From the NCBI GenBank assembly GCA_037131105.1, contig JBAXRQ010000001.1:458263-522262 (forward strand): a stretch of 64,000 bases of DNA. Reading direction: 5' to 3'. The position numbers and the translations under genes were made by a program. Below the pieces are notes generated by a model. The model ran no database searches, was not told the origin of the DNA, and was given only the letters and a program-made list of their open reading frames with translations. Source of the DNA: a bacterium (GTDB lineage: Bacteria; Patescibacteriota; UBA1384; CAILIB01). Shown one piece after another: positions 606-59,432 of this stretch; within the stretch, counting starts at the first letter, position 1, and the number at the start of each line of letters is the position of its first letter.

Positions 606-1478
606 GTGACTACCAAGCAACTGGAGCTTCGGGCTCTGGCTATCCGTGAGGATATTATTACGATGCTTCAGGAGGCAGGATCCGGCCATACTGCCGGACC
701 TTTGGGGATGGCAGACGTCTATGCTGCTTTGTATTTCCATGTACTCCACCACGATCCTAAAAACACTGAGCTGCCTGACCGCGACCGCTTGGTCCTTTCC
801 TGCGGTCACACCTGTCCTGTACGGTATGCGGCAATGGCCGAGGCCGGCTACTTCCCCCGTAAGGAACTGTTGACCCTGCGCAAACTGGGAACCCGCTTAC
901 AAGGTCATCCCCACAACCTCACCCTTCCTGGTACTGAGACCTCCTCTGGTCCCCTTGGACAGGGACTTTCTCAGGCTGTCGGCATGGCCCTGGCCGCCCG
1001 TATGGACAAGGAAAAATGGAGAACCTACGCCATAGTTAGCGACGGTGAGCATCAGGAAGGCCAGATCTGGGAGGCCGTCATGTTCGCCGGAAATCGTGGG
1101 CTAGGAAACCTTACCGCCATTCTTGATCGCAACTATATCCAGATCGACGGTCCTACTGAGACGGTGATGCCGCTGGAGCCTTTGGCGGATAAGTACCGTG
1201 CTTTCAACTGGCATGTCATTGAGGTAGACGGACATAACATTCCTCAGATCATCGAGGCCTGCGACCAGGCCAAGGCGGTGGCAGACCGGCCTACCATGAT
1301 TATTGCCCATACCATCCCCGGCAAAGGTGTGGACTATATGGAGTACGACTTCCATTGGCATGGCGCCCCTCCCGGAATCTCTGACATCGCCGGGTCACCA
1401 CCTAAGGAGCAGCAGGCCAAGATCGCCCTGGCAGAGCTTCGTACCCTCAAGCGCACCATAATGAGCGAACATGAGTAA
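606..1478 (+). CDS. tkt: Transketolase, N-terminal (TPP-binding) subunit; split tkt.
   Basis: 290 aa. Contains GSGHTAGPLGMADV, the GHT..P motif and GDGE..EGQIWEA, typical of the transketolase N-terminal section. GTG start. Overlaps the next ORF by 8 nt. Confidence 0.9.
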   Translation: MTTKQLELRALAIREDIITMLQEAGSGHTAGPLGMADVYAALYFHVLHHDPKNTELPDRDRLVLSCGHTCPVRYAAMAEAGYFPRKELLTLRKLGTRLQGHPHNLTLPGTETSSGPLGQGLSQAVGMALAARMDKEKWRTYAIVSDGEHQEGQIWEAVMFAGNRGLGNLTAILDRNYIQIDGPTETVMPLEPLADKYRAFNWHVIEVDGHNIPQIIEACDQAKAVADRPTMIIAHTIPGKGVDYMEYDFHWHGAPPGISDIAGSPPKEQQAKIALAELRTLKRTIMSEHE

Positions 1479-2448
1479 TACCGTAGTCCCTTGGACCAAG
1501 AAATTGGATGAGCCGGAGATGCTGCCTACCCGCAACGGGTTTGGTGAAGGGCTAGTTGAGGCTGGTAAAGATCGTAACGTGGTTGCGCTCTGTGCTGATC
1601 TGACTGAGTCTATTCGTATCGAGGCTTTTGCAAAAGCATACCCAGAGCAGTTTGTAGAGATAGGGGTGGCCGAGCAGAATATGATGGGTATAGCCGCTGG
1701 CTTGGCACTTTCCGGGAAAATTCCCTTTGTCGCCAGTTATGCTGTCTTTAACCCCGGCCGCAACTGGGATCAGCTGCGCGTCTCAGTCGCTTATTCCCAG
1801 GCTAACGTAAAGGTCATTGGCGCCCATGCCGGCCTTTCGGTCGGTCCTGACGGGGCTACCCACCAGGCTTTGGAGGATATTGCTATTACCCGGGTGCTGC
1901 CCGGCCTTGTAGTCATAGCTCCCACCGACATCCACGAGGCCCGCAAGGTGGTCAAGGCCGTGGTTGACTACAAAGGGCCGGTTTATATTCGTTTCGGGCG
2001 TGACAAGGTACCTACGATCACTACCGCGGATACTCCCTTTGTCATCGGCAAGGCTAATCTCTTCAGAGCTGGCAAGGACATTACTATCTGTGCTAACGGC
2101 GCCATTGTCTACGAAGCCTTGAAAGCTGCCGAAATGCTGGCCAAAAAGAAGATCTCTGCCGAAGTGTTGGCAGTGCCTACCATAAAGCCTCTAGATGAAA
2201 CGGCCATTCTTAGCTCGGTTAAAAAAACTGGAGGCATGGTCACGGCCGAGGAAGCCCAGATAAACGGGGGGTTGGGCAGTGCCATCGCTGAGCTACTAGG
2301 AGAGAAGCATCCTGTGCCCATGGAACGTATAGGAGTGAAGGATACTTTTGGTGAGTCAGGTACAGCCGGCGAACTGATGGACAGGTATGGCCTGCGCTCC
2401 ACCGATATCTATGAAGCAGCGCTCAGGGTCGTAGCTCGTAAGTCTTAA
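1471..2448 (+). CDS. tkt: Transketolase, C-terminal (pyrimidine-binding plus C-terminal domain) subunit.
   Basis: 325 aa. Contains VEIGVAEQNMMGIAAGLA and FGESG, typical of the transketolase C-terminal section. Translationally coupled to the N-terminal subunit. Confidence 0.9.
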   Translation: MSNTVVPWTKKLDEPEMLPTRNGFGEGLVEAGKDRNVVALCADLTESIRIEAFAKAYPEQFVEIGVAEQNMMGIAAGLALSGKIPFVASYAVFNPGRNWDQLRVSVAYSQANVKVIGAHAGLSVGPDGATHQALEDIAITRVLPGLVVIAPTDIHEARKVVKAVVDYKGPVYIRFGRDKVPTITTADTPFVIGKANLFRAGKDITICANGAIVYEALKAAEMLAKKKISAEVLAVPTIKPLDETAILSSVKKTGGMVTAEEAQINGGLGSAIAELLGEKHPVPMERIGVKDTFGESGTAGELMDRYGLRSTDIYEAALRVVARKS

Positions 2449-15656: not shown

Positions 15657-16670
15657 GTGCTGCGCCAGGGCAAACTGTGGCACACCCCAGGGGGATTTAT
15701 TCCAATCTTAAGTACTGAGCCTCCCAGTCGCACACGACTGATCCAGGCCTCTATTAAGCGGAACTTCCGGTACGCGAAACGAAACACACCTCGAACTCTC
15801 TACCGAGCAGGTATTTCATTACTAGCTCTGGTGGCTGTCTTCAGATACACGCCTGACCTGCAGGCCTTCTCAAGCAGCCGGGAAGAGTCGCTCAGCCAAC
15901 GTCAGAGGGAGCAGACCCTTCAAGTGGTGGGTTCCATGATCTCACTGATTACGCTTGAGCCTGTTCGCCAACCCAGCTTGGCCGCAGTCAGTCCGATTGT
16001 CGTTCCTGTGCCGGCACAGCCTACTACTTATACGGTGGCAGCAGGGGAGTCACTTTCGGCCATTGCTGATAGTGTGGGTTTGAAAAACGGTAGCTTACTG
16101 CTGGCCAATCCCCAGATCAATGACGCACAGATTATCCATGTGGGTGACGTACTTACTGTTCCGGCAGCGGATGCCTCAGCTGACGACCTGGCGCGGTTAG
16201 CGAGTGCACAGCGGAAGAAACAGCAAAGCGTCGCCTTGGCTGCCGAGGCCGCTACAGCGAAAGTAGCAGCTGTCTCCACTCCGCCGAAAAGCACTGGTTC
16301 TCATTCGGGCTCCTATGCACTGCCTATCCACTATAAGGAACTGTCCCAGGGCTTTAGCAGCTGGCACCCAGGAGTAGATCTAGCAGCGGATGTCGGTACT
16401 ATGGTTGTTGCTTCGCATGCAGGCTGCATTATCCAGGAGTCTGACGGTTGGAACGGTGGCTATGGTAGAATGATTATGCTCGACCACGGTGACGGCACTT
16501 CATCTTTGTATGCTCACTTGAGTGCCTTTGTGGCAGTCAGCGGGCAGTGCGTAACGGCGGGCCAGGTTATCGCCCACTCAGGCAATACTGGACGCTCGAC
16601 CGGACCCCACCTCCATTTTGAAATCAGAAAGAACGGTATTCAACTAGATCCCACACCTTATGTTCATTGA
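15657..16670 (+). CDS. LysM-domain M23 metallopeptidase (peptidoglycan endopeptidase), membrane-anchored.
   Basis: 337 aa. LysM motif YTVAAGESLSAIADSVG...GDVLTVP. M23 motifs HPGVDLAA and GNTGRSTGPHLHFEI. The true start may be an internal Met. Confidence 0.8.
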   Translation: MLRQGKLWHTPGGFIPILSTEPPSRTRLIQASIKRNFRYAKRNTPRTLYRAGISLLALVAVFRYTPDLQAFSSSREESLSQRQREQTLQVVGSMISLITLEPVRQPSLAAVSPIVVPVPAQPTTYTVAAGESLSAIADSVGLKNGSLLLANPQINDAQIIHVGDVLTVPAADASADDLARLASAQRKKQQSVALAAEAATAKVAAVSTPPKSTGSHSGSYALPIHYKELSQGFSSWHPGVDLAADVGTMVVASHAGCIIQESDGWNGGYGRMIMLDHGDGTSSLYAHLSAFVAVSGQCVTAGQVIAHSGNTGRSTGPHLHFEIRKNGIQLDPTPYVH

Positions 16671-17673
16671 TGAGAAGGAATTAGAGATCCAGGCAGGCAG
16701 AGGCGGCGACGGTGTCGCCCTTTTTAGACGTGAGATCTATGTCCCCAAGGGAGGCCCTGACGGAGGCGATGGTGGACGGGGCGGAGACGTCATCATTGAG
16801 GGGCGCGCCAATATGCACGCTCTTTCTCATCTATCTGCAATTGATAGGCTGAAGGCTGAGAACGGTGAGAAGGGAGGTCACAAGACCTCCACAGGCCGCT
16901 CGGGTGAGGACAGTATGATTTTGGTTCCGCTCGGAACCGTAGTAGAGCAGTGGATCCCAGAGACAGAGACCTGGAAGCAGATTGGTGAGCTAGTAGAAGA
17001 AGGTCAGTCCATGGTTGTGGCTACCGGTGGAAACGGCGGCTGGGGTAACTGGCATTTCAAATCGTCTGTCCAGCAGGCTCCCGATCGCTGGAACCCAGGT
17101 CTTGAAGGCGATAAGATGCGCCTCCGCTTGGTACTGAAGCTTATTGCTGACATCGGACTAGTTGGACTGCCGAATGCCGGTAAGTCTACCTTCTTGGCCA
17201 GTGTCTCGGCGGCCCAGCCGAAGGTTGCCAACTATCCCTTTACTACCCTCGAGCCCCAGCTGGGGGTTGCCGAGGTAGGAACTGGTGAAGACAGGACTCA
17301 GCTGGTCATTGCCGACCTGCCTGGGCTCATTGAAGGCGCTAGCCAGGGCAAGGGCCTCGGTGCCGTGTTCCTTAAACATGTTGAGCGCACCCATCGCATA
17401 CTTCACCTGATAGACTCTTCAGCTACTACTGAAGAGATACTTCATAATTACCGGGTCATACGTACCGAGCTTGAAACCTGGTCACCGGTGCTGCTGGCTA
17501 AGCAGGAGACCATCGTGCTGACCAAGATCGAACTAATTGATCCCGAGGAGCTCGCCGAGAAGATTACATCACTGAAAACGTCCATTGGCAAGCCTGTTCA
17601 TGCCATTTCAGCTGCCGCTCACAAGGGCGTTAAGGAATTGTTGACAGAGTGCGCCAAAGACGTTATAGTGTAA
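16660..17673 (+). CDS. obg: GTPase Obg/CgtA.
   Basis: 337 aa. Obg-fold N-terminus (GGDGG repeats) followed by a G domain (GLPNAGKST, DLPGLIEGAS). Confidence 0.9.
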   Translation: MFIDEKELEIQAGRGGDGVALFRREIYVPKGGPDGGDGGRGGDVIIEGRANMHALSHLSAIDRLKAENGEKGGHKTSTGRSGEDSMILVPLGTVVEQWIPETETWKQIGELVEEGQSMVVATGGNGGWGNWHFKSSVQQAPDRWNPGLEGDKMRLRLVLKLIADIGLVGLPNAGKSTFLASVSAAQPKVANYPFTTLEPQLGVAEVGTGEDRTQLVIADLPGLIEGASQGKGLGAVFLKHVERTHRILHLIDSSATTEEILHNYRVIRTELETWSPVLLAKQETIVLTKIELIDPEELAEKITSLKTSIGKPVHAISAAAHKGVKELLTECAKDVIV

Positions 17674-17769: not shown

Positions 17770-20700
17770 ATGGCAATCCACGCGACTCGTCGTGTCTTCG
17801 GTCGTAAGACCACTCAGATTCCTCTGCCGAACCTTATTGAGGTGCAGCTTGATTCCTATACCTGGTTCCTCTCTGAGGGTATCCGGGAGCTTTTGGATGA
17901 ACTGAATCCTATTGAGGACTTTACCTCAAAGAACCTGACTCTGGAGTTTAAGGAGTTTTCCTTCGAGGACCCTAAGCTTACCGCTGAGGAGTCCCGTGAG
18001 AAGAAGCTTACTTACAAGGCCCTCCTGAAGGTCCGCGCCATCCTGACCAACAAGGTCACCGGCGAGATCAAGGAGAACGACGTCTACATGGGTGAGTTCC
18101 CTATGATGACCAAGAACGGTACCTTTATCATCAATGGTATCGAGCGCGTCGTGGTCTCCCAGATCGTCCGTTCCTACGGTGTACTGTTCACCGGTGAGCC
18201 GGCTCCTGACCGGACTCTGTTCGGTGCCAAGCTGATTCCTGCCCGCGGTGCCTGGCTTGAGTTCGAGACCTCCAGCCGCGATGTAATCTCGGTGAAGATC
18301 GACCGAAAGCGTCGCATCCCGGTTACCACCCTGCTGCGAAGCCTGGGATATGGTACCACTGAGGAGATCATGCAGCTGTTTGCCGATGTCGACACCAATC
18401 CAGACCACAGGTACATCGAGACCACCCTTGAGAAGGATCCTGCCGAGAACAAGGTTGAGGGTTTTGTAGAGGTATACAAGCGTATTCGTCCCGGAGATCT
18501 AGCTACTCCTGAGAACGCCCAGGCTTTCATTGAGGCGATCTTCTACTCCCCGAAGCGCTATGACCTAGGCAAGGTAGGCCGTTACAAGCTGAACAAGCGC
18601 CTTGGCCTTGATATTCCCAATAATGTCGACAACCGTGTACTGCGTCCAGCTGACATCATTGAGATCGTCAAGGAGATCATCATCCTGAATAACACCAAGA
18701 ACTCCCAGCCTGACGACATCGACGACCTCCAGAACCGCCGCGTCCGTGCCGTCGGTGAGTTGGTCCAGAGTCGTGTCCGCGTCGGTATGCTGCGCCTTGA
18801 GCGCATCATCCGCGACCGTATGAGTGTTACCGACCTGGAGACGGTTACCCCTTCCCAGCTGGTCAATGCCCGCCCGGTAGCCGCTGCTCTGCAGGAGTTC
18901 TTCCTGTCCTCGCAGCTGTCCCAGTTCATGAACCAGACCAACCCTATCGCTGAGCTTGAGCACAAGCGCTGCCTTACTGCTACTGGTCAGGGTGGATTGT
19001 CCCGCGAGCGTGCTGGCTTCGAGGTTCGCGACGTGCATCCTTCCCACTACGGCCGCATGTGTCCTATTGAGACCCCTGAAGGTCCTAACATTGGTCTGGT
19101 GCAGTATCTGGCTTCCTACGCCAAGATCAACGAGTACGGCTTCATTGAGACCCCGTACCGTACCGTTGTCCAGAAGGAAGGTCAGTTGCCACAGGTTACT
19201 GGGGAGATCACCTATATGGATGCCTCAGAAGAGGAAAAACATATCATCGCTCCGGCTTCTGCCATTGTTGATGAGAAGGGCTTCCTGACTGAGACCCGCA
19301 CCGCCGTCCGTAAGTTCGGTCACCCCGACATCGAGTTGGTAGGGAAGATCGACTACATGGACGTATCCCCCCAGCAGACCTTCTCCATCACTACGAACCT
19401 TATTCCTGGACTTGAGCAGGACGATGCTGCTCGTTCTTCGATGGGATCGAACATGCAACGCCAGGCTGTACCTACCATCCGTCCTGACTCTCCTGTAGTT
19501 GGTACCGGTATGGAAGGCGACGCTGCCCGTGACTCGGGCCAGGTCATTTTCTCAGCCGTTGACGGTGAGGTGACTTCGGTTGCCGCCGACCGTGTTCTGG
19601 TAAAGGACGTTAAGAACTCCCTGCACGAGTATCGTCTGGAGAAATTTATCCGTTCAAACCAGGGCACCCTTATCAGCCAGACCCCGAGCGTAAGCGTCGG
19701 TGAGAAGGTGAAGAAGGGTGAGATTATTGCTGACTCTTCAGCTACTGACCAGGGTGAACTAGCCCTGGGGCAGAACGTGTTCGTAGCGTTCATGTCGTGG
19801 GAAGGGTACAACTTCGAGGACGCTATCATCATCTCTGATCGTCTGGTCAAGGCTGACCGCTACACCTCGATTCATATTGAGAAGTATACTATCGAAGTTC
19901 GTGACACTAAGCTTGGTCCAGAGCAGCTGACCCGCGACATTCCGAATGTCGGTGAGGAAGCTCTCCGAAACCTAGACGAGACCGGTATCATCCGTATCGG
20001 TGCTGAGATCGAGTCAGGTGACATCATGGTCGGTAAGATCTCTCCCAAGGGCGAGACCGAGCTGACCGCTGAGGAGCGCCTGCTGCGTGCCGTCTTCGGT
20101 GAGAAGTCCAAGGAAGTGCGTGACTCGTCCCTGCGTTTGCCTCACGGTGAGCGTGGTAAGGTCATCGGCATCAAGATTTTCTCCAAGGACAATGGCGATG
20201 AGCTCTCCACTGGTGTCTATCAGTCGGTTGAGATCACTGTAGCCCAGCTCCGCAAGATCTCGGTAGGTGACAAGCTGGCTGGACGTCACGGAAACAAGGG
20301 AGTTATCTCCATCATCGTTCCTGTGGAAGACATGCCGTACATGCCTGACGGTACCCCTATCGATATGATCCTGAACCCACTTGGTGTGGTAGGACGTATG
20401 AACCTGGGACAGATCATGGAGACTACCCTCGGGTGGGCTGCCAGTGTCCAGGGCTACAAGGCAGCCGTACCTATCTTCGGCGGACTGACCGAGGAGATGA
20501 TCCGGGCTGAACTTAAGAAGGCGGGTCTTCCTGAGGACGGTAAGTCCATCCTCTACGACGGCAAGACCGGACAGGCCTATGACAACCCGATCACCGTCGG
20601 TGTGAACTACATGCTGAAGCTCTCCCACCTGGTGGACGACAAGATGCATGCCCGTTCCGTCGGTCCATACTCGATGATCACCCAGCAGCCGCTTGGTGGT

Positions 20701-21174
20701 AAAGCCCAGATGGGTGGACAGCGTTTCGGTGAGATGGAAGTATGGGCACTTGAGGCCTACGGCGCCGCCCACACCCTCCAGGAGATGCTTACCATCAAGT
20801 CTGACGATACCGTCGGCCGTTCAAAGGCCTACGAGTCGATCATCCGTGGCGGCGTCATCCAGAAGCCATCCATCCCCGAGTCTTTCAACGTTCTTGTCCG
20901 TGAGCTGCAAGGCCTCGGTCTGGAAGTGAAGCTGCTGACCGAAGAGGGAGAGGTGGAGCCGGTAGACAAGCCGAAGGTTCCCGTTGTTCCTACTATTCAT
21001 ATTCCTACCGACGATGAGATCCTTGATGACGACGAGCTGGAGAGCGACGGCGCCTCCGACGAGTTCGCAGAGGAAAAGGAAGATGAGGAATTGACCGAGT
21101 TCGGGGTTCCCGAGCCGGACATCGAGCCTGACGCCGAGGGGAAAGAAGGTGCGCCCGAGCCGGAAAACGCCTAA
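17770..21174 (+). CDS. rpoB: DNA-directed RNA polymerase subunit beta.
   Basis: 1134 aa, collinear with RpoB motifs. Has a roughly 55-aa acidic C-terminal tail. Confidence 0.97.
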
Positions 21175-28275: not shown

Positions 28276-28968
28276 ATGGAGGTAGTACCCTATACTATTC
28301 GAGAACACTCGGGATATATCATTCATGACACTCCTCCAGAGCGGGGACTGCCGATTCGTAGACTTCAGAGTGAAGGTGGAGAGGTGCTCTCTACCAATGA
28401 GCTACTGCAGATAGCCCTGGGCAACGTCGATGGGATGGAGGAGGGGGTGAGGGAGTACGGCTCCCAGTTCCTTACTACTCTCCATAGTGTGAATGATATA
28501 GTTGAGTCACTCCATACTGACCATCTCCAGGCAACACGTTTATTAGCGATTCTGGCCCTTGGGAAGAGGTTGTACGCTGCTGAGCAAGGTTCGATGGCAC
28601 ATATCAGAGGTATCGAAGATATTTACCACCATTATCGGTCAATGTCTCAGTTGGCTAAGGAGCAGCTGCGGGTAGCCCTGATAAATAGTCGCTACCAGCT
28701 TGTCCATGAGGATACCCTGGCCATAGGTAGTGTCGAATATATGCACATAAGCCCTAGGGACGTGTTCCAGGCGGCTGTTGAGAGGAGGGTTACGGCTATT
28801 GTCTTGGTCCATAATCACCCTAGTGGGGACGCCACCCCTAGTCAGAGCGACAAGGAGTTTACCCAGGAGATTATGGCTGCTGGCAAGCTGCTCGGAATAG
28901 CGCTGCTTGACCATGTAATCATTGGAAGAGAGGGGTACGGCAGCTGTTTGGGGTCCGAAGAACACTAG
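28276..28968 (+). CDS. radC: RadC-family JAB/MPN-domain protein (UPF0758).
   Basis: 230 aa. Contains the JAMM-like motif HNHPSGDATPSQSD...LLDHVII. The N-terminal region is HhH-like. Confidence 0.8.
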   Translation: MEVVPYTIREHSGYIIHDTPPERGLPIRRLQSEGGEVLSTNELLQIALGNVDGMEEGVREYGSQFLTTLHSVNDIVESLHTDHLQATRLLAILALGKRLYAAEQGSMAHIRGIEDIYHHYRSMSQLAKEQLRVALINSRYQLVHEDTLAIGSVEYMHISPRDVFQAAVERRVTAIVLVHNHPSGDATPSQSDKEFTQEIMAAGKLLGIALLDHVIIGREGYGSCLGSEEH

Positions 28969-30375: not shown

Positions 30376-30693
30376 ATGGCAGAAGCTCCCAAGCAGAGAA
30401 TTCGGATTCGCCTTAAGGCCTATGACTATCGAATCATCGATAAGTCAGCTGCTCATATTATTGAGACGGCAGAGCGTACCGGTGCAAAGGTCGTGGGTCC
30501 CATTCCACTTCCTACCGATCGTAAGGTTACTACCTTGCTCCGTAGTCCCCATGTCGACAAGGATTCCCGAGAGCAGTTTGAGATGCGCATTCACAAGCGT
30601 CTTATCGACGTAGTGGAGCCTACTTCTTCGACCATCGACTCCCTTATGAGCCTGGACCTTCCAGCTGGAGTCGACATTGAGATCAAAATGTAA
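30376..30693 (+). CDS. rpsJ: 30S ribosomal protein S10.
   Basis: 105 aa. IRIRLKAYD...SPHVDK signature. Confidence 0.95.
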
Positions 30694-30745
30694 CATTCCC
30701 TAATCCGGTAGAACCTCTGGCCTAGCCCATGTTCGGAAGTATCGT

Positions 30746-31348
30746 ATGACAGCACTACTCGGTATCAAAATCGGCATGACCCAGGTCTTTGACCAGAATG
30801 GTCGTGCAATCCCCGTCACTGCCATTCAGGCTGGTCCTTGTCATGTTACCCAGGTGAAGACCGTTGAAAAGGACGGCTATCAGGCTGTTCAGATCGGCTA
30901 TTCATCTACTCGCAAGGCAAACAAGCCTGAGACTGGTCACACCAAGTCTCTCGACCACACCCCTCGGTACCTCCGCGAGTTTCGCACTGAGGAAGGTGAG
31001 TTTGAAGTCGGACAGACCCTTGACTGCAGCCTGCTTGAGCCAGGAATGCTCCTGCGTCTTACGGGTACTTCAAAGGGTAAGGGATTTGCCGGCGTAATCA
31101 AGCGTCACCACTTCAGCCGCGGTCCTGAGACCCACGGTTCCGATCATCACCGCGCTCCTGGTTCCATCGGTTCAATGTTCCCTCAGCACGTGCTGAAGGG
31201 CCAGAAGATGCCGGGACGCATGGGTAATGACCAGGTTACTGTGCGTAAAGTGAAGCTGGTGGATATTGATCCGACCCAGAACCTTATATTTGTGAAGGGA
31301 CCAGTACCTGGTGTACCGGGAGCCCTGGTCGAGATATCCTCAATGTAA
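30746..31348 (+). CDS. rplC: 50S ribosomal protein L3.
   Basis: 200 aa L3 signature (GKGFAGVIKRH). Confidence 0.95.
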   Translation: MTALLGIKIGMTQVFDQNGRAIPVTAIQAGPCHVTQVKTVEKDGYQAVQIGYSSTRKANKPETGHTKSLDHTPRYLREFRTEEGEFEVGQTLDCSLLEPGMLLRLTGTSKGKGFAGVIKRHHFSRGPETHGSDHHRAPGSIGSMFPQHVLKGQKMPGRMGNDQVTVRKVKLVDIDPTQNLIFVKGPVPGVPGALVEISSM

Positions 31349-31351
31349 CCC

Positions 31352-31990
31352 ATGGCCACATTCAACCTCTACAATATTGCTGGTGAGAAGATCGGAACCG
31401 TCGAGCAGCCGGCGCTGTTTGAGACCCCGGTTGACCAGAAACTGATTCACCGTTACCTGACCTGGGTACGTACCATGCTTCGGCATACCTTGTCGGATAC
31501 CAAGACCCGCGGCGAAGTTCGCGGCGGCGGCAAGAAGCCGTGGCGTCAGAAGGGTACTGGCCGTGCCCGTGTCGGATCCAGCCGTTCGCCAATCTGGCGT
31601 AAGGGTGGTACGGTCTTCGGACCTCTGAAGGCCCGAAACTGGGCTACCAGGCTTCCTCGTACTGAGCGCCGCAAGGCATTGTTCTCGGCTCTGGCCGCAA
31701 AAGCCAAGGCTGACAACATCATCGTGCTGGATGCTTGGATCATGGAAGCTCCAAAGACCCAGGAAGCTGCCGCTGTTCTTGCTAAGCTTCCTATCGAGGC
31801 TGGTAAGAAGATCCTCCACATCAGTCCCGAAGTTAACGCCAACCTATTCCGCTCTACCCGCAACCTTCCTGGTGTCACCTCGAAGACCGTAGCGGCTGCT
31901 AACATCATTGATATCCTCAACCACGACGTGATTGTCCTTACCAAGGATGGTCTGGAGCGTCTTGAGACTCACTTCAGTCCTACACTATGA
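31352..31990 (+). CDS. rplD: 50S ribosomal protein L4.
   Basis: 212 aa. KPWRQKGTGRAR motif. Confidence 0.95.
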   Translation: MATFNLYNIAGEKIGTVEQPALFETPVDQKLIHRYLTWVRTMLRHTLSDTKTRGEVRGGGKKPWRQKGTGRARVGSSRSPIWRKGGTVFGPLKARNWATRLPRTERRKALFSALAAKAKADNIIVLDAWIMEAPKTQEAAAVLAKLPIEAGKKILHISPEVNANLFRSTRNLPGVTSKTVAAANIIDILNHDVIVLTKDGLERLETHFSPTL

Positions 31991-32304
31991 AAGCCCCGAT
32001 CACCCCTCATATCACCGAAAAGAGCTTCCGTATCGCCGATGGCTCTGGTAAGAACGCCTCCGCTTATACCTTCAAGGTAGCTCTCTCCCTTACCAAGGGT
32101 CAGGTTAAAAAGATCGTCGAGCGCGAGTATAAGGTTACTGTCATCGATATCAATATTGTCCGTATTCCCGGGAAGGCACGTCGCTTCAAGGGTATCATGG
32201 GCCGTACCTCAGCTATCAAAAAGGCCTTGGTCACCTTGAAAAAGGGCGACCGTATCCCAGGATTTGAGGCTGAGGACACCAAGTCCGTATCAGATAAGGA
32301 GTAA
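31987..32304 (+). CDS. rplW: 50S ribosomal protein L23.
   Basis: 105 aa L23-like, in operon position. Confidence 0.9.
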
Positions 32305-32306
32305 GT

Positions 32307-33140
32307 ATGGCCCTCCAACACTATAAGCCAACCAGCGACGGCCGACGGGGAATGACCTCCCAGGACTTTGCTATGGTCACTGAAAGTAAGCCAGAGAAGT
32401 CCCTCCTGCGTCCACTGAAGAACAAGGCCGGCCGCAACAGCGGAGGACGCATTACTGTCCGCCATCAGGGAGGCGGAGCCGCCCGTTCCTATCGTTTGAT
32501 TGACTTCAAGCGTGAGAAGGAAGGTGTACTTGCTACCGTTACCTCGATCCAGTACGATCCCAACCGATCCTCTCGTATCGCCCTACTAACCTATGCCGAC
32601 GGCGAGAAGCGCTATATCCTTTCTCCCTTGGAGCTAAAGGTTGGCGATACTATCCAGAATGGTTCTGATGCGCCTATCCGTCCAGGAAACTCTCTGAAAC
32701 TCGCCGACATTCCTCTGGGTCTTACTATTCACAACATCGAGCTTACCCCAGGCCGGGGCGGCCAGCTAGGACGTTCGGCCGGAATTGCGGTCACCCTCTT
32801 GGCTAAAGAAGGAAAATATGCTACCCTAAAGCTTGCAAGCGGAGAGACCCGCAAGGTACTCGTCGAATGCAGGGCTACCGTCGGTCAGCTCGGCAACGTG
32901 CTCCACTCCACAGTGGTCATAGGTAAGGCCGGCCGTCAGCGCCACCTAGGCATTCGTCCTACGGTCCGTGGTAAAGCTATGAACCCGAATGCCCACCCAC
33001 ACGGTGGTGGTGAGGGTAATAACTCCATCGGACTGAAGAAGGGTCCTAAGACCCAGTGGGGAGCTGCTGCTTTGGGCGTAAAGACCCGACGCAAGAAGAA
33101 CCCTACTAAGGTATTTATCGTCAGCAAACGCAAGAAATAA
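32307..33140 (+). CDS. rplB: 50S ribosomal protein L2.
   Basis: 277 aa. GGGEGN and MNP(N)AHPHGGGEG motifs. Confidence 0.97.
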
Positions 33141-33142
33141 CC

Positions 33143-33409
33143 ATGTCACGATCCCTCAAAAAAGGTCCGTACATCGACGAGAGGCTCCTGAAGAAGGTGC
33201 AGGCTTTGAAGACCGGCGACAAAACCGTCATCAACACCTGGAACCGCGCCTGCTCTATCACTCCTGAGATGGTTGGCAAGACCATCGGGGTTCACAACGG
33301 CAAGGTCCACGTACCGGTATTTGTGGTAGAGGACATGGTCGGGCACAAGCTCGGTGAGTTCTCACTGACCCGCAAGTTCCTCAAGCATGGCGGCAAGAAG
33401 GTTAAATAA
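33143..33409 (+). CDS. rpsS: 30S ribosomal protein S19.
   Basis: 88 aa. SRSLKKGPY...GHKLGEF. Confidence 0.95.
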
Positions 33410-33834
33410 TGAGCGCCATGGAAATTACTCACAAAACCAAGAACCTTCGTATCGCTCCTCGCAAGCTTCGTCTTGTGGTAGATAAGATCCGCCACCAGAA
33501 TGCTGAGCAGGCTGTCGGTATCCTTGGCTTGGTTCCAAACCGCGGCGGCGAGCTTATCCAGAAGTCCCTGAAGTCAGCTATCCAGGTGGCTAAGGATAAG
33601 AACCTTGATGCTTCCACTCTGGTTATCCAGCGTGCTTACGCCGATGAGGGTATGACCCTGAAGCGTTTGATCGGCCATTCCCGCGGCCGCATGTCCCGTA
33701 TCTCAAAGAAATACAGCCATCTTTCCATCGTGCTTTCCGGTACCGAGCAGGTACGGGCCCGCCGCAAGCCTGCTAAGGCAGCCGAGCCTGAGGTTACGAC
33801 TGAGACGGCCGAACAAGTGAGTCTAACAGCCTAG
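33409..33834 (+). CDS. rplV: 50S ribosomal protein L22.
   Basis: 141 aa, L22 fold signature, with a C-terminal extension. Confidence 0.9.
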   Translation: MSAMEITHKTKNLRIAPRKLRLVVDKIRHQNAEQAVGILGLVPNRGGELIQKSLKSAIQVAKDKNLDASTLVIQRAYADEGMTLKRLIGHSRGRMSRISKKYSHLSIVLSGTEQVRARRKPAKAAEPEVTTETAEQVSLTA

Positions 33835-33837
33835 TTT

Positions 33838-34530
33838 ATGGGACAGAAAGTCAACCCAATCGGAATCCGGATCGGCTTCAACAAAGGCTGGAACGCCCAC
33901 TGGTTCAGCCAGCGTAATTATGCTGCCAATCTTCAGGAGGACTCCATTATTCGTGAGCTTATCCAGAAGCGTCATCCTAAGTCTGGTATTTCCCAGATTG
34001 AGATCTTCCGCAGTCGTGGTGAGGTCGTGGTAAGCGTGCATACCGCGAAGCCCGGTATTATCATCGGACGCAGCGGTTCTGGCGTACAGGACCTTAAGCT
34101 TAAGCTTGAGAAGGCAGCCTTCAGCCGTATGCTTCACAAGGAGCGTCCTACCCTTCGCCTCAACATCGTTGAACTGAAGTCGCCTGAGCTGAACGCTCAG
34201 GTAGTGGCTGACAACATTGCTGGACAGCTGGAACGCCGCATCTCGGTGAAGCGTGCCATAAAGCAGTCCATCGAGAGGACTATGGAGAAGAAGGCCAAGG
34301 GCATCAAGATCCGGGTAGCTGGTCGACTAGGGGGTTCTGAAATCGCCCGTTCTGAGAATATCTCACAGGGTTCCATCCCTCTGCAGACCATCCGCAGCGA
34401 TATCAGCTACGCCCAGGCCGAAGCCCACACCACCTACGGAATCATCGGAATCAAGGTTTGGATCTATCTGGGGCAGTCGGATGTATTTCCTGTCGCTACC
34501 TCAGCCCGGACCAGTAACCCTAACCGCTAG
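33838..34530 (+). CDS. rpsC: 30S ribosomal protein S3.
   Basis: 230 aa. GQKVNPIG(I)R KH-domain start. Confidence 0.95.
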
Positions 34531-34532
34531 CC

Positions 34533-34952
34533 ATGCTGAGTCCTAAGAAAATGAAATATAGGAAGCCACACCGCGGCCGCATGCCCGGTCAGGCTACCCG
34601 TGGCACAGAAGTGTCCTTCGGTGAGTATGGCCTGCAGGCTCAGAGTAACGGGTGGGTGACCGCCCGCGAGATTGAGGCAGCCCGCCGTGCCATGACCCGT
34701 CACATCAAGCGTGGTGGACAGGTATGGATCCGTATCTTCCCTCAGAAGCCGGTTACCAGCCACGGCAGTGAAAACTCCATGGGTTCCGGTAAGGGTGCCG
34801 TCGACCACTTTGTGTCGGTAGTCCGCAGCGGACGTGTCATCTTCGAGATGGCAGGAGTTTCCGAGGAGCTTGCCAAGGAAGCCATGCGGCTCGCCGCCCA
34901 CAAGCTGTCGATTAAGACTAAATTCGTCACTAAGGAACGGGGTCTCGTATGA
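34533..34952 (+). CDS. rplP: 50S ribosomal protein L16.
   Basis: 139 aa. [11 protein letters not shown] start. Confidence 0.95.
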
Positions 34953-35203
34953 GCGATCACAAGCAAATCATCAAGGGTACCGTGGTACGCCTCAGCAGCG
35001 CCCAGACTATCAAGGTCGCCAGCAAGGTTACCAAGGTTCATCCTCTCTACCGCAAGCGTTACAGCCAGGTCCGTCACTATGTGGCTCATGACCCAGCTGG
35101 GACCGCTCAGGTCGGCGATCTTGTCGTCATCGAGAGCTGCCGTCCAATCAGCAAGCGCAAGCACTGGATCCTCCAGGGTGCCCAGATTGACGCCAAGGCA
35201 TAA
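34949..35203 (+). CDS. rpsQ: 30S ribosomal protein S17.
   Basis: 84 aa. KGTVV...KVTKVHPLY signature. Overlaps rplP by 4 nt, so no rpmC (L29) lies between them. Confidence 0.93.
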
Positions 35204-35245
35204 ATCAGTTACACTAGCAGAAGCGCTTAGAAACGCCCCAGCCAT

Positions 35246-35614
35246 ATGATCCAACCACAGACTATACTTACCGTCGCCGATAATTCCGGAGCTAAGGAGC
35301 TCCTGGTTATTACTGTGCTCGGCGGAGCCGGCCGCGACAGCGCCAGCCTTGGGGATGTGGTGTCGGCTTCGGTTCGCCGGGCTACGCCAGACGGCGCCGT
35401 AAAGAAGAAAGAGGTAGTGAAGGCAGTCATCGCCCGTACTAAGAAGGCGGTTCGTCGAGCCGACGGTTCATCAATCAGGTTTGATGATAACGCCGCCATC
35501 ATTATCGGTGCCGACAAGAACCCTCGCGGCTCCCGTGTCTTCGGACCGGTCGCCCGTGAATTGCACGAGCGAGGCTACTCCAAGATCATCTCACTGGCCC
35601 CTGAGGTCCTTTAA
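35246..35614 (+). CDS. rplN: 50S ribosomal protein L14.
   Basis: 122 aa. [13 protein letters not shown] signature. Confidence 0.95.
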
Positions 35615-35616
35615 TT

Positions 35617-35940
35617 ATGACTATGACTATCAAAAAGGGTGACCAGATCCAGGTTATAGCCGGCCGCGACAAAGGCAAGCGTGGCGTTGTGGAGAAGGTG
35701 ATTGCCGAAACCTCCCGCGTGGTGGTTGGCGGTGTAAACATTCGTAAGCACCACCTGAAGCGTAGTAGTTCACGTCCCCAGGGCGGCATCATCGAGATGC
35801 CAGGTGCTTTCAGCCGTGCCAACGTCATGGTGGTATGTCCTCACTGCAGCAAGCTGACCCGTATTGCCCATACCATTTCCGAACAGTCCAAATTCCGCTC
35901 CTGCATTCATTGCAAGGGTAGTCTCGATAACGCCAAGTAA
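35617..35940 (+). CDS. rplX: 50S ribosomal protein L24 with a Cys4 (CxxC...CxxC) C-terminal region.
   Basis: 107 aa. KOW motif KKGDQIQVIAGRDKGKRG. The C-terminal CPHC...CIHC pair suggests a zinc ribbon. Confidence 0.9.
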   Translation: MTMTIKKGDQIQVIAGRDKGKRGVVEKVIAETSRVVVGGVNIRKHHLKRSSSRPQGGIIEMPGAFSRANVMVVCPHCSKLTRIAHTISEQSKFRSCIHCKGSLDNAK

Positions 35941-36536
35941 TGCACCCATTTCTTACCATCTACAACCAGAAGGCAGTACCAAAGCTCAAAGAGGGCCGTA
36001 CCTATGTCTCCTCTTACCTTATTCCACGAGTGACCAAGGTATCTGTCAACATGGGCGTGGGTGACACCGTTGGAAACGGGAAGGCACTTGAAGAGGTGAG
36101 CGAGTTGATGACCCAGATCACTGGTCAGAAGCCTGCTGTCACCAAGGCCCGCAAGGCTATTGCCGGCTTCAAGATCCGTGAAGCCATGCCAGTCGGTCTG
36201 AAAGTTACCCTCCGTGGAGCCCGTATGAACGACTTCCTTATTAAGCTTTCTCAGGTAGTACTTCCTCGTACCCGCGACTTCCGCGGTTTGGTTCCTACCA
36301 GCGTTACCTCTGACGGCAACCTCAACATCGGTATCCGCGACACCCTGATCTTTCCTGAGGTATCCCAGGGCACCCTTTCCCACGGTCTGCAGGTGACCTT
36401 GGTTTCAAACGCACGCACCCAGGAAGAGGCGAGGATTCTCTATGAGTCCCTCGGATTCGTATTCCAGAGTGCTGAGGAAGCTGCTACCCAGGCGCGCCGG
36501 GGCCGCCGTACCAATACCAACTATAAGCGAAGCTAA
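35940..36536 (+). CDS. rplE: 50S ribosomal protein L5.
   Basis: 198 aa L5 signature. Confidence 0.93.
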
Positions 36537-36538
36537 GT

Positions 36539-36724
36539 ATGGCGCGCAAAGCCCTTATCGTCAAAGCCAACCGGACGCCAAAGTTCAGTACCCGCATTCA
36601 GCGTCGGTGCTGGAAGTGCGGACGCATTCATAGCGTTTATCGTCAGTTCGGCATGTGTCGTCTCTGCCTGCGCGAGGCCATTCACCGCGGAGAAATCCCC
36701 GGTATCAAAAAGGCTTCCTGGTAA
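36539..36724 (+). CDS. rpsN: 30S ribosomal protein S14 type Z (zinc-binding, 61 aa).
   Basis: CWKCGR...CRLC Cys4 motif, short form. Confidence 0.93.
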
Positions 36725-36744
36725 TCTAGAAAAGAACCAATCCC

Positions 36745-37110
36745 ATGGATACTATCGCCAACCTACTCACATCGATTCGTAACGCCGAGATGGCCCGTCT
36801 GCAGACGGTACTGACCCCTACCTCAAAGTTGAGGAAGGCAGTTGCTACTATTCTTCAGAAAGAGGGCTATATCGCTGGCCTTGAAGAGGTGGACGGCAAG
36901 CTGAAGATTACCCTAGGTGCCAAGGGCAAGCGCCACACCTACAAACGGGTAAGTAAGCTGGGCCGCCGCGTCTATGTAGGCGTTGGCAAGATCCCCCTTA
37001 TCCTTGGAGGCAAGGGCATGGTCATTATCTCCACTTCAGAAGGCGTACTGTCCGGCCGTGAGGCCCGCAAGCGCAAGCTCGGTGGCGAGCTGATCTGCGA
37101 AGTCTACTAA
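36745..37110 (+). CDS. rpsH: 30S ribosomal protein S8.
   Basis: 121 aa. DTIANLLTSIRNA start. Confidence 0.93.
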   Translation: MDTIANLLTSIRNAEMARLQTVLTPTSKLRKAVATILQKEGYIAGLEEVDGKLKITLGAKGKRHTYKRVSKLGRRVYVGVGKIPLILGGKGMVIISTSEGVLSGREARKRKLGGELICEVY

Positions 37111-37119
37111 TTCACAGCT

Positions 37120-37653
37120 ATGTCCCGCATTGGAAAGCAACCTATCACCATTCCTTCCGGCATCACCGTCGAGCTTAAGCCCGGCCTGATTGTCGTGAAC
37201 GGCACCAAGGGCACTCTTGAGGTACCGTACTTCGATGGACTTGAGATCACCCTCACTGAAGGCGTCCTTGAGGTCGCATGCGTCGATATGGCTGAGCGTC
37301 CTAAGCAGGGCCTGCAGCGTACTTTGATCCAGAATGCCGTTACCGGCGTAAGTACCGGATGGGACAAGAGCCTTGAGCTGAACGGGGTTGGTATGCGTGC
37401 CGCTATGGCAGGTGCCGGACTCAATCTCAGCCTTGGATTCTCGCACCCTGTGGCCGTTGAGGCTCCTGCCGGTGTTCAGTTCCAGGTTGTGAAGAACGTC
37501 ATCACTGTCTCAGGTACTGATAAGCAGCTGGTAGGTGAGACCGCCGCAAACATTCGCAAGCTGCGCAAGCCTGAGCCTTACAAGGGCAAGGGTATCCGCT
37601 ACGTAGGAGAAGTCGTCCGCCGCAAGGCCGGTAAGACCGGTAAGGCCAAGTAA
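37120..37653 (+). CDS. rplF: 50S ribosomal protein L6.
   Basis: 177 aa. SRIGKQPI start. Confidence 0.95.
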   Translation: MSRIGKQPITIPSGITVELKPGLIVVNGTKGTLEVPYFDGLEITLTEGVLEVACVDMAERPKQGLQRTLIQNAVTGVSTGWDKSLELNGVGMRAAMAGAGLNLSLGFSHPVAVEAPAGVQFQVVKNVITVSGTDKQLVGETAANIRKLRKPEPYKGKGIRYVGEVVRRKAGKTGKAK

Positions 37654-37661
37654 TATCTACC

Positions 37662-38024
37662 ATGTCTACCACCACCCAACAGCATCAGACTCTTCTTCGC
37701 CGCAAGCGCCGCACCCGCGCCGCTCTTTCAGGCTCCATGGAGCTGCCACGCCTAAGCGTCAGCCGCAGTCTTCGTCACATCTCTGCTCAGATTATTGATG
37801 ACAAGAAGGGTGTTACTCTCGTAAGCGCCCATGACATCCAGCTAGATGCCAAGCTTGCCAAGGCCCACAAGACCGAAAAGGCCGCAGCAGTAGGTGCCAA
37901 GCTGGCTGAGCTAGCTACCGGCGCCAAGATCAAGGCCGTGCGCTTTGACCGCGGCGCTTACAAATACCACGGACGGGTAGCGGCATTGGCCGACGCCGCT
38001 CGCAAAGGCGGACTCAAGTTCTAA
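37662..38024 (+). CDS. rplR: 50S ribosomal protein L18.
   Basis: 120 aa L18 signature. Confidence 0.9.
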   Translation: MSTTTQQHQTLLRRKRRTRAALSGSMELPRLSVSRSLRHISAQIIDDKKGVTLVSAHDIQLDAKLAKAHKTEKAAAVGAKLAELATGAKIKAVRFDRGAYKYHGRVAALADAARKGGLKF

Positions 38025-38039
38025 CCGATAAGTCACACT

Positions 38040-38513
38040 ATGGCCCGTTACAATTCCGACAATTCAGCACCCAAGGAAAAACCCGAATTCGAGGAGTCGG
38101 TAGTTCAGGTTGACCGTGTGACCCGCGTTGTGAAAGGCGGCCGCCGCATGCGATTCCGCGCTCTTGTCGTGGTAGGTGATCGCAAAGGACGCGTAGGTGC
38201 CGGTGTCGCAAAGGACAATGAGGTCCAGGGCGCCGTCCAAAAGGCAGTCCTTGCCGCCAAGAAGGCTATGATCAAGGTGCCCCTTACCGAGAACGGCTCT
38301 ATTCCTTACGAGATCACCCAGCACTACGGTGCTTGCCATGTTCTCCTTAAGCCAGCTGCCGAGGGTACTTCTATCATTGCAGGAGGCGGAGTTCGCTCAG
38401 TCGTTACCCTGGCCGGTATTGAGAACATCCTTTCCAAGAGTCTAGGATCCAATAACAAGGTGAACGTAGTCATGGCCACTATTAAGGCCCTGAAGCAGTT
38501 CTCCCAGGAGTAA
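38040..38513 (+). CDS. rpsE: 30S ribosomal protein S5.
   Basis: 157 aa S5 dsRBD and C-terminal domain. Confidence 0.95.
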
Positions 38514-38514
38514 T

Positions 38515-38946
38515 ATGCGTATTCACACCATCACATCTACCAACCCGATCAAGAGCGGACGCCGCGTAGGCCGCGGTATTTCGGCTGGCCAGGGCAAGAC
38601 TGCCGGCCGTGGTACCAAGGGCCAGAAGGCTCGTACCGGAGCTAACAGCAACATCCCTCGTACTTTCGACGGTGGCGCCACCAACTTCGTACAGCGCCTA
38701 CCTAAGCTGAAAGGCTTTACGAGCGCTCGCCTGCGTCCGGTAACCATTAATCTTGCTACCTTGGCTCGTTCCTTTGAGGACAAGGCTGTCATCAGTCTTA
38801 CTTCTCTAGTTGAAAAGGGTATTATTGATGAGCACGCCCTGAAGTCAGGCGTTAAGATTGTCGGCACCAGCGGAAAGATTGAGAAGAGCTTCAAGTACGA
38901 TCTGGAAGATACTCGTCTGCGCATTGCCAAGAGCCTCCAGGCCTAG
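38515..38946 (+). CDS. rplO: 50S ribosomal protein L15.
   Basis: 143 aa. GRGxxxGxGKTxGRG motif. Starts 2 nt after rpsE, so there is no rpmD (L30). Confidence 0.93.
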
Positions 38947-41850: not shown

Positions 41851-42144
41851 ATGGCAAAAGACGTTTTGACTCTACAAGGAGAGGTTACCGAGGCTTTGCC
41901 AAATGCAATGTTCAGGGTTGAGTTGGAGAACGGACTTACTATCCTTGCCCATCTCTCTGGTAAAATGCGGGTCCATTACATTAAGGTCCTGCAAGGTGAC
42001 TGGGTGACTGTAGAGCTGACCCCTTACGACCTCTCAAAGGGTCGGATTATCACCCGGCTCAAGCCGGAGGATGCGCGTCTGCTCAGTCGGACCAAGATGC
42101 AAAAAAGTAACACCCCCTCGAATGAAGGTACGAGCATCAGTTAA
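41851..42144 (+). CDS. infA: Translation initiation factor IF-1 with a roughly 25-aa C-terminal extension.
   Basis: [12 protein letters not shown]...MFRVELENG...GKMR...YDLSKGRI S1-fold signature. Start chosen at the internal ATG at 41851; the track ORF at 41770 has a non-homologous N-terminal extension. The ORF's last 23 nt overlap rpmJ in a different frame. Confidence 0.85.
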
Positions 42145-42238
42145 GAAAATGTGTAGCAAGTGCCGGGTGTTTCGTCGTCACGGTGTTCTTCGTATCGACT
42201 GCGACAGCAACCCCAAGCACAAACAGCGTCAAGGTTAA
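42122..42238 (+). CDS. rpmJ: 50S ribosomal protein L36 (zinc-binding form). Not in the ORF track because it is under 60 aa.
   Basis: My translation is [38 protein letters not shown], 38 aa with a C-x2-C...C...H motif and a TAA stop at 42236-42238. Confidence 0.9.
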
Positions 42239-57749: not shown

Positions 57750-59432
57750 GTGTTCGATGTGCGAAAAAGTGAGAAGATCGTGAATATAGTTGGATTGTAT
57801 GCCGTACTGGCAGGAGTAGTGCTGGGGTCAATTCCTTTCGGAATCATCTTTACTAAGATGCGGGGAGGGACCGACCTGCACAAGAAGGGCTCGGGTAACA
57901 TCGGGGCCACTAACGCCTTTAGATCAGATCCACTGGCCGGGGTACTTACCCTACTTGGGGACTGTCTGAAAGGCTTTGTGCCCTGCTATGTCCTGCATCG
58001 CCAAGGTCTTGATCAGTACGCCTACCTGGCAGCAGCTGGGATAGTCTTCGGAGCCAACTGGTCAATATTTCTGCTCTGCAAGAAAGGTGGGAAAGGCATC
58101 GCCGCCCTTATGGGGGTCGGCCTCGCTCTTCAGCCACTTCTTGCACTGGTAAGCTTCGGGGTGTTTTTATTCCTGGTGCGTATCAGTAAGTATGTTTCAG
58201 TCGGCTCCATCGGTGCTATGGTTGTGGTGACCTGCTGGGGCATATTCCTTCTAGGGGGACACCATAACCCGCAGGGATGGCTCTTACTAGTCGCAGGACC
58301 CCTGGCCATCTGGAAGCATCGTGAGAACATCGACAGACTAACCCACGGTTGTGAGAAGAAGTTTTCCCTTAAGAAGCAGCCGGCGCCGGCTGGACATTGC
58401 CACAGGGTGGCCGGATTCATTATCCATGCCACCACTGATGATCCGGATAAGCTAAAGGAGAAGGCACTGGAGCTGGTCAACGGGAAGCGAAAGGCAGAAT
58501 GGTTAGTCAGGCGCATGCCCGGCTGGCTGATACGATCCTTGTTACCCTTCATTCCGCCCCGGGTAACTGGAAACACCCAGTCGTGGGTAACCATTGCAGA
58601 CGGCAGCAGCATTGAGATGATCTTCGTGTCAGTATATATGACTCCGAAGCAGATGATGCGTTGGCAGGGGCTGGCGGTAAGGAAGATAGTCAAGGCTGCC
58701 TTCATGCTTGAACGCAGGGGTGCCAGCCATATCGGACTGGGAGCCTATACCTCCATTGTTGGTAAGAGGTGGGATATGGGCGCCGGCGACGCGGTGCTGG
58801 TGCGGTTCAGAGAGTTCGGTGGTACGGCGATGATCACCACGGGCAATGCCCTGACGGTCTTTACCGGCATCCATGCCCTAAAGGTTCTTGCTGCTCAGCA
58901 AAGAAAGGACCTTAAGGACTGCAGGGTGGCGTTCGTGGGTCACCGTGGCAACATTGGCACAGTGGGAACCAGGATACTGTGCACCATGGTGCCTGAGGAG
59001 AATCTCATCCTGATAGGAAGAGAGGATTCACAGGAGAGACTGCTCGAAGCCGATTTCATCATCGTCGCCACCAGCAGTGAAGTGCCTCTCGACGAACGCT
59101 ACGTAAAGAAGGGAGCCTGCATCGTCGACCTTTCACGTCCTCGGCAGACCGAGAAGATGGAAGGGTGCACGGTGGTGGAGGGTGGCGTCATTACGGGTGC
59201 AGAAGGTACCTATATCGCCATTCCCCATAACCTGGATACAAATGAAATGCATGCCTGTACGGCTGAGACAGCGCTTGAGTGTGTGATGGGAAGCAAGGAA
59301 AGCCACGTGGGACCGATCGACCCGAACTACGCCATGAGGATAGGTCGGGCCATGGGCACACAGGGTTTGAGTATCAGTCGTCTTCGAGGCGCCGATGACG
59401 GGGCCTACCAAGGAGGTGAGAACAGTGGATAG
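57750..59432 (+). CDS. plsY: Fusion protein: glycerol-3-phosphate acyltransferase PlsY (about residues 1-205) joined to a C-terminal domain of about 350 aa resembling the cyanobacterial acyl-ACP reductase (AAR) family.
   Basis: PlsY motifs GSGNIGATN, DCLKG, KGGKGIAA and HRENIDRL. Compared from memory with S. elongatus AAR, the C-terminal domain matches along its length: GFIIHATT vs GLIGHLTS; LGAYTSIV vs LGGFTSII; ITTGNALT vs FTTGNTHT; Rossmann VAFVGHRGNIGT vs VAVVGATGDIGS; EADFIIVATS vs EADFIVWVAS; EMHACTAETALECVMG vs QMFACFAEAMLLEFEG. GTG start. The true start may be the GTG at 57780. Confidence 0.7.
   Translation: MFDVRKSEKIVNIVGLYAVLAGVVLGSIPFGIIFTKMRGGTDLHKKGSGNIGATNAFRSDPLAGVLTLLGDCLKGFVPCYVLHRQGLDQYAYLAAAGIVFGANWSIFLLCKKGGKGIAALMGVGLALQPLLALVSFGVFLFLVRISKYVSVGSIGAMVVVTCWGIFLLGGHHNPQGWLLLVAGPLAIWKHRENIDRLTHGCEKKFSLKKQPAPAGHCHRVAGFIIHATTDDPDKLKEKALELVNGKRKAEWLVRRMPGWLIRSLLPFIPPRVTGNTQSWVTIADGSSIEMIFVSVYMTPKQMMRWQGLAVRKIVKAAFMLERRGASHIGLGAYTSIVGKRWDMGAGDAVLVRFREFGGTAMITTGNALTVFTGIHALKVLAAQQRKDLKDCRVAFVGHRGNIGTVGTRILCTMVPEENLILIGREDSQERLLEADFIIVATSSEVPLDERYVKKGACIVDLSRPRQTEKMEGCTVVEGGVITGAEGTYIAIPHNLDTNEMHACTAETALECVMGSKESHVGPIDPNYAMRIGRAMGTQGLSISRLRGADDGAYQGGENSG

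Follow-up and report, generated by a model that had tools for sequence, protein, structure and literature searches.

The rplP-rpsQ and rpsE-rplO junctions

The 64-kb stretch of bacterial DNA analysed here (the window) carries on its forward strand an S10-spc-alpha ribosomal super-operon of standard layout, as judged from open reading frames (ORFs), Pfam matches and the annotation of the identical genes in locus L081. Two ribosomal protein (r-protein) genes are absent from their canonical sites in it: rpmC, which encodes uL29 (L29), and rpmD, which encodes uL30 (L30). At the first site the L16 gene (rplP) stops with a TGA at 34950-34952 and the ATG of the S17 gene (rpsQ) occupies 34949-34951, giving an ATGA overlap of four nucleotides (nt). 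At the second site the TAA of the S5 gene (rpsE, 38511-38513) and the ATG of the L15 gene (rplO, starting at 38515) are separated by a single T at 38514. Both junctions were read directly, and an earlier note on this DNA was right that a 4-nt overlap and a 1-nt gap leave no space for rpmC or rpmD. With 139 aa and 84 aa, L16 and S17 have the usual size, and their own Pfam profiles span them end to end, so no fused protein of 60-70 aa is hidden in either; S5 (157 aa) and L15 (143 aa) are likewise too short to hold one. Public gene callers start the L16 of the window at Met7, which gives a 133-aa form (P0001).

How far do these junctions depart from the usual arrangement? As a reference set we used 80 loci of species-representative genomes, found by a scan with L16 (identity at most 66% among the matches listed). 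All 72 loci in which both genes were found and the gap could be measured have 219 nt or more between L16 and S17, and an L29 ORF was extracted from this interval in 68 of them; among the 72 are loci labelled Saccharibacteria, Uhrbacteria, Nomurabacteria, Paceibacterota and Gracilibacteria. Between S5 and L15 there are 42-164 nt in eight of nine reference loci labelled as Candidate Phyla Radiation (CPR); the non-CPR loci have 252-516 nt there, and 20 of them yielded an L30 ORF. The ninth CPR locus, from a metagenome-assembled genome (MAG) labelled Saccharibacteria (L001), is unlike the others in having 228 nt between S5 and L15. The gap is filled by a Lys/Ala-rich ORF (L001 14129-14338) that bears no resemblance to L30.

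The absence of uL30 here is a known hallmark of the CPR, as the earlier note had it: all CPR bacteria lack uL30 and have S5 adjoining L15 (PMC9297842), an absence across CPR/Patescibacteria for which Tsurumaki et al. 2022 (the same paper) cite Brown et al. 2015. The window shows the same rpsE-rplO adjacency without rpmD and differs in nothing at the site, its spacer being at the minimum of 1 nt. It is uL29 that makes up the unusual half of the finding.

Hidden Markov models (HMMs) were used to look for the two genes throughout the window. They were trained on ORFs from the 80 reference loci, 70 lying between L16 and S17 and 23 between S5 and L15; clearly wrong-frame ORFs were dropped, and the E. 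coli proteins added, before the models were built. The search took in every stop-to-stop segment of 25 aa or longer, in the six frames of the whole window and with filters off. Neither model found a match there, the best E values being 1.6 for L29 and 0.17 for L30. As a positive control the L29 model was run on 15 loci not used in training, and it found L29 in every one (E 1e-25 to 1e-4). Ten small unassigned ORFs of the window were without a Pfam match to L29 or L30 at a cutoff as loose as E<=10, and none of the r-protein clusters within the window (S12-S7, S10-spc-alpha and L13-S9) holds rpmC. The earlier note had proposed checking for the two genes away from their usual sites; within the window, profile searches found neither. 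Every L29-bearing locus examined (68 reference loci, 15 metagenome loci, and the loci L113, L114 and L115) has rpmC between rplP and rpsQ.

A clade inside the CPR with both junctions

The L16/S17 overlap is not peculiar to one assembly. It is identical in three independent assemblies of the organism (ENA ERZ27300165, JGI 3300020157 and ENA ERZ27299960), all of which have the 133-aa form of L16; in the first, the source of the window, this 100% identical protein is on a contig of 391,167 bp. In eight further lineages (L084/L085, L086/L087, L089, L090, L091, L106/L107, L108/L109 and L112), whose L16 is 71-81% identical to that of the window, L16 is likewise joined directly to S17, and S5 to L15. 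In nine lineages of the clade, gene calls put S17 at about -4 to +2 nt from L16, and the ends of high-scoring segment pairs allow no more than 32 nt between the two; S5 and L15 lie -1 to +14 nt apart. These sequences come from separately assembled JGI, ENA and Logan data sets, and relatives of the window organism were read as segments of at most 23 kb. Searches with L16 and RpoB covered the best 120 matches each (identity at least 67% for L16 and at least 64% for RpoB), and an S17 scan of metagenomes yielded 17 loci, 4 of them members of the clade. The L29 model detected no L29 in the clade loci. In two CPR lineages of similar raw L16 identity, L110 (69%) and L113 (71%), a Pfam-positive L29 is kept. 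Since the same junctions recur across the clade and L29 is kept in L110 and L113, the absence is a conserved character of the clade, and the rpmC deletion left no remnant.

Members of the clade are environmental, have a GC content of 54%, comprise many species-level lineages and are found on contigs of up to about 0.95 Mb. An RpoB identical to that of the window lies on an NCBI contig of 949,156 bp, which encodes MEI6477856.1, and the contigs of relatives measure 607 kb, 914 kb and 946 kb; such lengths would fit small genomes of about 1 Mb.

Have neighboring proteins grown to fill the place of uL29? Gene-length tables comparing the clade with L29-bearing outgroups show no clade-specific compensatory extension of L22, L23, L24, S17 or L16. 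In the clade L23 has 100-107 aa, L22 121-141, L24 105-115, S17 77-84 and L16 138-147; in the outgroups L23 has 113-149 aa, L22 107-209 and L24 104-108. The 107-aa uL24 of the window has the same length in clade members and in outgroups.

The concatenated sequences of 18 r-proteins, trimmed to 2468 columns, gave a neighbor-joining tree under Kimura distances, with support taken from 100 bootstraps. The lineages without L29 group together as one clade in 100/100 replicates; the CPR with these lineages included is likewise monophyletic in 100/100, a result obtained again with added taxa. The clade is thus monophyletic and lies inside the CPR, and the earlier note, which had suggested this phylogenetic check and had taken the DNA to point to a reduced, possibly CPR-like lineage, is upheld by it; the lineage may also, as that note allowed, live as a symbiont. 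The nearest neighbors of the clade are L001 and L003, both of them L29-bearing MAGs labelled Saccharibacteria. Among the best 120 matches for L16 and for RpoB, the nearest named ones are called 'Patescibacteria group bacterium' and the next-best named ones Patescibacteria, Berkelbacteria and Doudnabacteria.

A RadC/JAB-like gene lies between fusA and tuf in the window. It is found at the same place upstream of tuf in every clade locus that extends that far (L084, L086, L106 and L108) and was not seen there in L110 and L113, two relatives that have L29. The gene provides the clade with a further synteny marker.

Probable loss of uL29 and its alternatives

Losses of uL29 are rarer in the literature than losses of uL30, as the earlier note had said, yet several have been published. 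Within the CPR, Tsurumaki et al. 2022 (RNA 28:1041, PMC9297842) report that 'some Peregrinibacteria' have lost uL29; these resemble the window clade in being a CPR lineage without uL29 as well as uL30. Outside it, L29 alone is lost in 'Ca. Uzinura diaspidicola' and 'Ca. Walczuchella monophlebidarum', and both L29 and L30 in 'Ca. Fokinia solitaria' (Nikolaeva et al. 2021, 10.1101/2021.01.31.429008). In these bacteria, as in the window clade, the same gene or genes have gone from the S10/spc cluster under reductive evolution. They differ in being members of Bacteroidota and Alphaproteobacteria that live as symbionts inside the cells of insects or ciliates and have genomes of 0.26-0.84 Mb, whereas the window lineage belongs to an environmental CPR clade with contigs of up to about 0.95 Mb and 54% GC. 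The same study (10.1101/2021.01.31.429008) describes L29 and L30 as often-lost proteins of the ribosomal surface and counts L29 among the proteins whose loss or deletion is possible in bacteria. That rpmC is missing in endosymbionts means that a bacterial ribosome can do without uL29.

Is the loss in the window clade the one already reported from Peregrinibacteria? Three Peregrinibacteria-like loci were available: L114, which bears the NCBI name 'Candidatus Peregrinibacteria bacterium', L033, whose best named L16 relatives bear that name, and L115. All three carry L29. In a sampling without the class Peribacteria they are monophyletic together (100/100), and 0/100 bootstraps unite them with the window clade to the exclusion of other taxa. 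Their r-protein clusters are also broken. In L114 (3111-7419) and L115 (1987-10671) the last gene of the cluster encodes an extended S5 (212-266 aa), and neither L15 nor SecY comes after it; in the window clade, by contrast, the genes continue without a break from S10 to L15, SecY, Adk and Map. The L114 cluster moreover starts at rplP, which adjoins TraG/TrwB-like genes on the opposite strand, so that a non-ribosomal gene lies directly upstream of L16. In L033 (10001-14578), a locus without gene calls, only the nine genes from L16 to S5 were matched. The complete genomes of 'Ca. Peribacter riflensis' have 1.248 Mb and 58.5% GC (PMC4736985). Judging by the distance tree and by indirect evidence, the clade is probably not the same as the Peregrinibacteria published as lacking uL29, and its loss of uL29 is probably a separate event.

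Neither gene is present at its canonical site or elsewhere in the 64 kb of the window, and nine related lineages lack both at the corresponding sites; we infer that the two genes are absent from the rest of the genome as well. We think it likely that the window comes from a CPR clade with genomes of about 1 Mb that inherited the absence of rpmD, that rpmC was cleanly deleted in the ancestor of this clade, and that its 50S subunit contains neither uL29 nor uL30. The CPR-wide lack of rpmD would be the older state, to which a single precise deletion at the base of the clade would have added the loss of rpmC, joining rplP directly to rpsQ. The operon has remained closely packed, and through the ATGA overlap the translation of rpsQ may be coupled to that of rplP. 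The 50S subunit would be assembled without either protein, the ribosome would function without uL29, and the rim of the exit tunnel would be made of uL23, uL22 and uL24 alone.

Some points tell against this history. The search for L29 and L30 covered 64 kb of a contig that measures 391 kb in ENA, the identical RpoB being listed in NCBI on one of 949 kb; this leaves room for a relocated rpmC. Rfam and tRNA scans of the window gave no match, hence it offers no rRNA in which to inspect the uL29 site on 23S rRNA. The tree is distance-based, with missing data for some taxa and few named CPR references, and the sister of the clade varies among bootstraps (L003 in 53/100, L001 plus L003 in 25/100, other Saccharibacteria in 10/100). 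Finally, the NCBI names of clade members say little or contradict one another ('bacterium', 'Patescibacteria group bacterium' and 'Verrucomicrobiae bacterium'), the last of them, borne by two relatives (HSI20644.1, MEZ0286558.1, HSI21321.1), being in conflict with the CPR placement.

The chief alternative is that rpmC, and possibly rpmD, has moved to a place in the genome beyond the window. Some 7-16% of the genome was searched (64 kb set against contigs of 391 kb and 949 kb), and operons do become rearranged in the CPR, as the Peregrinibacteria-like clusters broken before L16 and after S5 illustrate. On the other hand most other r-protein clusters lie within the window and are without rpmC, and analyses of complete genomes show that uL29 has truly been lost in CPR bacteria (PMC9297842). 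Above all because rpmC is at the canonical rplP-rpsQ site in every L29-bearing locus examined, we regard relocation as unlikely. A further thought is that the sequences belong to a reduced member of a non-CPR phylum, for instance Verrucomicrobiota, which lost both proteins convergently as 'Ca. Fokinia solitaria' did. The 'Verrucomicrobiae bacterium' names speak for this; against it stand the 100/100 placement inside the CPR near Saccharibacteria-labelled MAGs (in a tree that has no reference from the Planctomycetes-Verrucomicrobia-Chlamydiae group and so is not a direct test of Verrucomicrobiota), the name 'Patescibacteria group bacterium' given to other clade members, and the names of the next-best matches. 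The Verrucomicrobiae names are most simply read as a labelling error, and a non-CPR origin is very unlikely.

Might uL29 instead be concealed at the site itself, in a fusion with L16 or S17, in an overlapping ORF or in an ORF diverged beyond recognition? An ORF of 170 aa does run on the opposite strand (34742-35254), and one of 85 aa crosses the junction in an alternative frame (34834-35091). Shadow ORFs of this kind are, however, expected at 54-56% GC; the antisense ORF has no Pfam match, L16 and S17 are accounted for by their own profiles, and with filters off no frame of the window did better against the L29 model than the value given above. We consider concealment extremely improbable. That the genes are missing through an artefact of assembly, binning or collapse in a single contig would be a natural worry with a metagenome assembly and a megahit-style contig name (k141_199412), but it is effectively refuted by the identical junctions in three independent assemblies, the homologous ones in eight other lineages assembled separately, the intact reading frames and the precise ATGA overlap.

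Beyond the deletion itself, we are inclined, with more reserve, to the wider view that a species-rich CPR clade of at least nine lineages lost uL29 independently of Peregrinibacteria and of the endosymbionts, and assembles a 50S subunit without uL29 and uL30 in which uL22, uL23 and uL24 have gained no compensating extension. If so, the clade would offer a natural minimal rim of the exit tunnel, in which one could ask how the docking of trigger factor and the signal recognition particle, and the folding of domains I and III of 23S rRNA, cope without uL29. The short list of bacteria living without uL29 would gain a well-delimited clade. The abutment of rplP and rpsQ is a clean synapomorphy, probably arising from a single event, and could serve as a quick marker of the clade in metagenomes. 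Such genomes would be scored too low by phylogenomic pipelines and completeness estimators that take L29 or L30 to be present. What is known of ribosomes is not changed, since the two proteins lie on the ribosomal surface, are known to be dispensable and have been reported as lost in some CPR lineages; lineage-specific loss of r-proteins in the CPR is already described, and one more lineage is added to it here.

The operon and other features of the window

The genes before the operon are, in order, rpoB, rpoC, rpsL, rpsG, fusA, the RadC-like gene and tuf. The operon itself runs rpsJ, rplC, rplD, rplW, rplB, rpsS, rplV, rpsC, rplP, rpsQ, rplN, rplX, rplE, rpsN, rpsH, rplF, rplR, rpsE, rplO, secY, adk, map, infA, rpmJ, rpsM, rpsK, rpsD, rpoA, rplQ, rplM and rpsI. 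Coordinates are given in the table.

Table. Positions in the 64-kb window of the genes and junctions discussed
Feature	Position	Strand	Basis or remark
Transketolase (tkt), N-terminal gene	606..1478
Transketolase (tkt), C-terminal gene	1471..2448		overlaps the preceding gene by 8 nt
IF-2, 593 aa	13804..15585
obg	16660..17673
rpoB	17770..21174
RadC/JAB-like gene	28276..28968	+
rpsJ, rplC, rplD, rplW, rplB, rpsS, rplV, rpsC (5' part of operon)	30376..34530	+	ORFs, Pfam annotation in L081
rplP (uL16), 139 aa	34533..34952	+	Pfam PF00252, E 6e-50, profile 1-132/132; TGA within ATGA overlap
ATGA stop/start overlap of rplP and rpsQ; site of rpmC (uL29) elsewhere in bacteria	34949..34952	+	sequence read
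rpsQ (uS17), 84 aa, ordinary length, no N-terminal fusion	34949..35203	+	Pfam PF00366, E 6e-20, residues 10-75
rplN (uL14)	35246..35614	+	Pfam PF00238, E 1e-48
rplX (uL24), 107 aa, C-terminal CxxC...CxxC motif	35617..35940	+	Pfam PF17136 and KOW
rplE (uL5)	35940..36536	+	Pfam annotation, identical gene in L081
rpsN (uS14, short zinc type), 61 aa	36539..36724	+	Pfam PF00253, E 2e-22
rpsH (uS8)	36745..37110	+	Pfam annotation in L081
rplF (uL6)	37120..37653	+	Pfam annotation in L081
rplR (uL18)	37662..38024	+	Pfam PF00861, E 8e-37
rpsE (uS5), 157 aa	38040..38513	+	Pfam PF00333 and PF03719, both domains
1-nt spacer between rpsE and rplO; site of rpmD (uL30) in most non-CPR bacteria	38514..38514	+	sequence read
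rplO (uL15), 143 aa, divergent	38515..38946	+	Pfam PF00828, weak, 23 bits vs 21.5 cutoff
IF-1 ORF	41860..42144	+	Pfam match at residues 6-66
rpmJ (L36)	42122..42238	+
560-aa protein with PlsY domain	57750..59432	+	PlsY domain at residues 24-197

The earlier note had also pointed to a short IF-2, a split tkt and many overlapping genes. All of these are there, many adjacent pairs of genes overlapping; they are consistent with a streamlined CPR genome, and none is unusual for the group.

Several of the r-proteins call for comment. The N-terminal GRG...GKT.GRG.KGQK motif of uL15 is visible in the translation of rplO. No Pfam match is recorded for uL15 in the clade relatives, and the L29-bearing CPR outgroups L110 and L113 have a normal PF00828 match. 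The C-terminal motif of uL24, CPHC...CIHC, is a putative zinc ribbon; as Thermus uL24 has the same CxxC...CxxC motif, it is probably ordinary. The uS14 gene rpsN was missed by the public gene calls on this contig (L081) and on several relatives, which have in its place an antisense ORF of 50-65 aa without a Pfam match (L081 7983-8135, minus strand). Automated inventories would therefore wrongly count uS14 as absent from the clade.

Other observations concern neighboring genes. The IF-1 ORF continues past its Pfam match with a C-terminal tail of about 25 aa and overlaps the start of rpmJ by 23 nt. It is obg, and not the usual rplK-rplA-rplJ-rplL cluster, that precedes rpoB, and the ORFs called for rpoB and rpoC have 26 nt in common. 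The S10 operon of the L29-bearing CPR relative L113 has rplC and rplD separated by an inserted gene for a glycerophosphodiester phosphodiesterase (GDPD; L113 1801-2475). Further downstream in the window, a 560-aa protein combines a domain of the glycerol-3-phosphate acyltransferase PlsY with some 360 aa that have no Pfam match.

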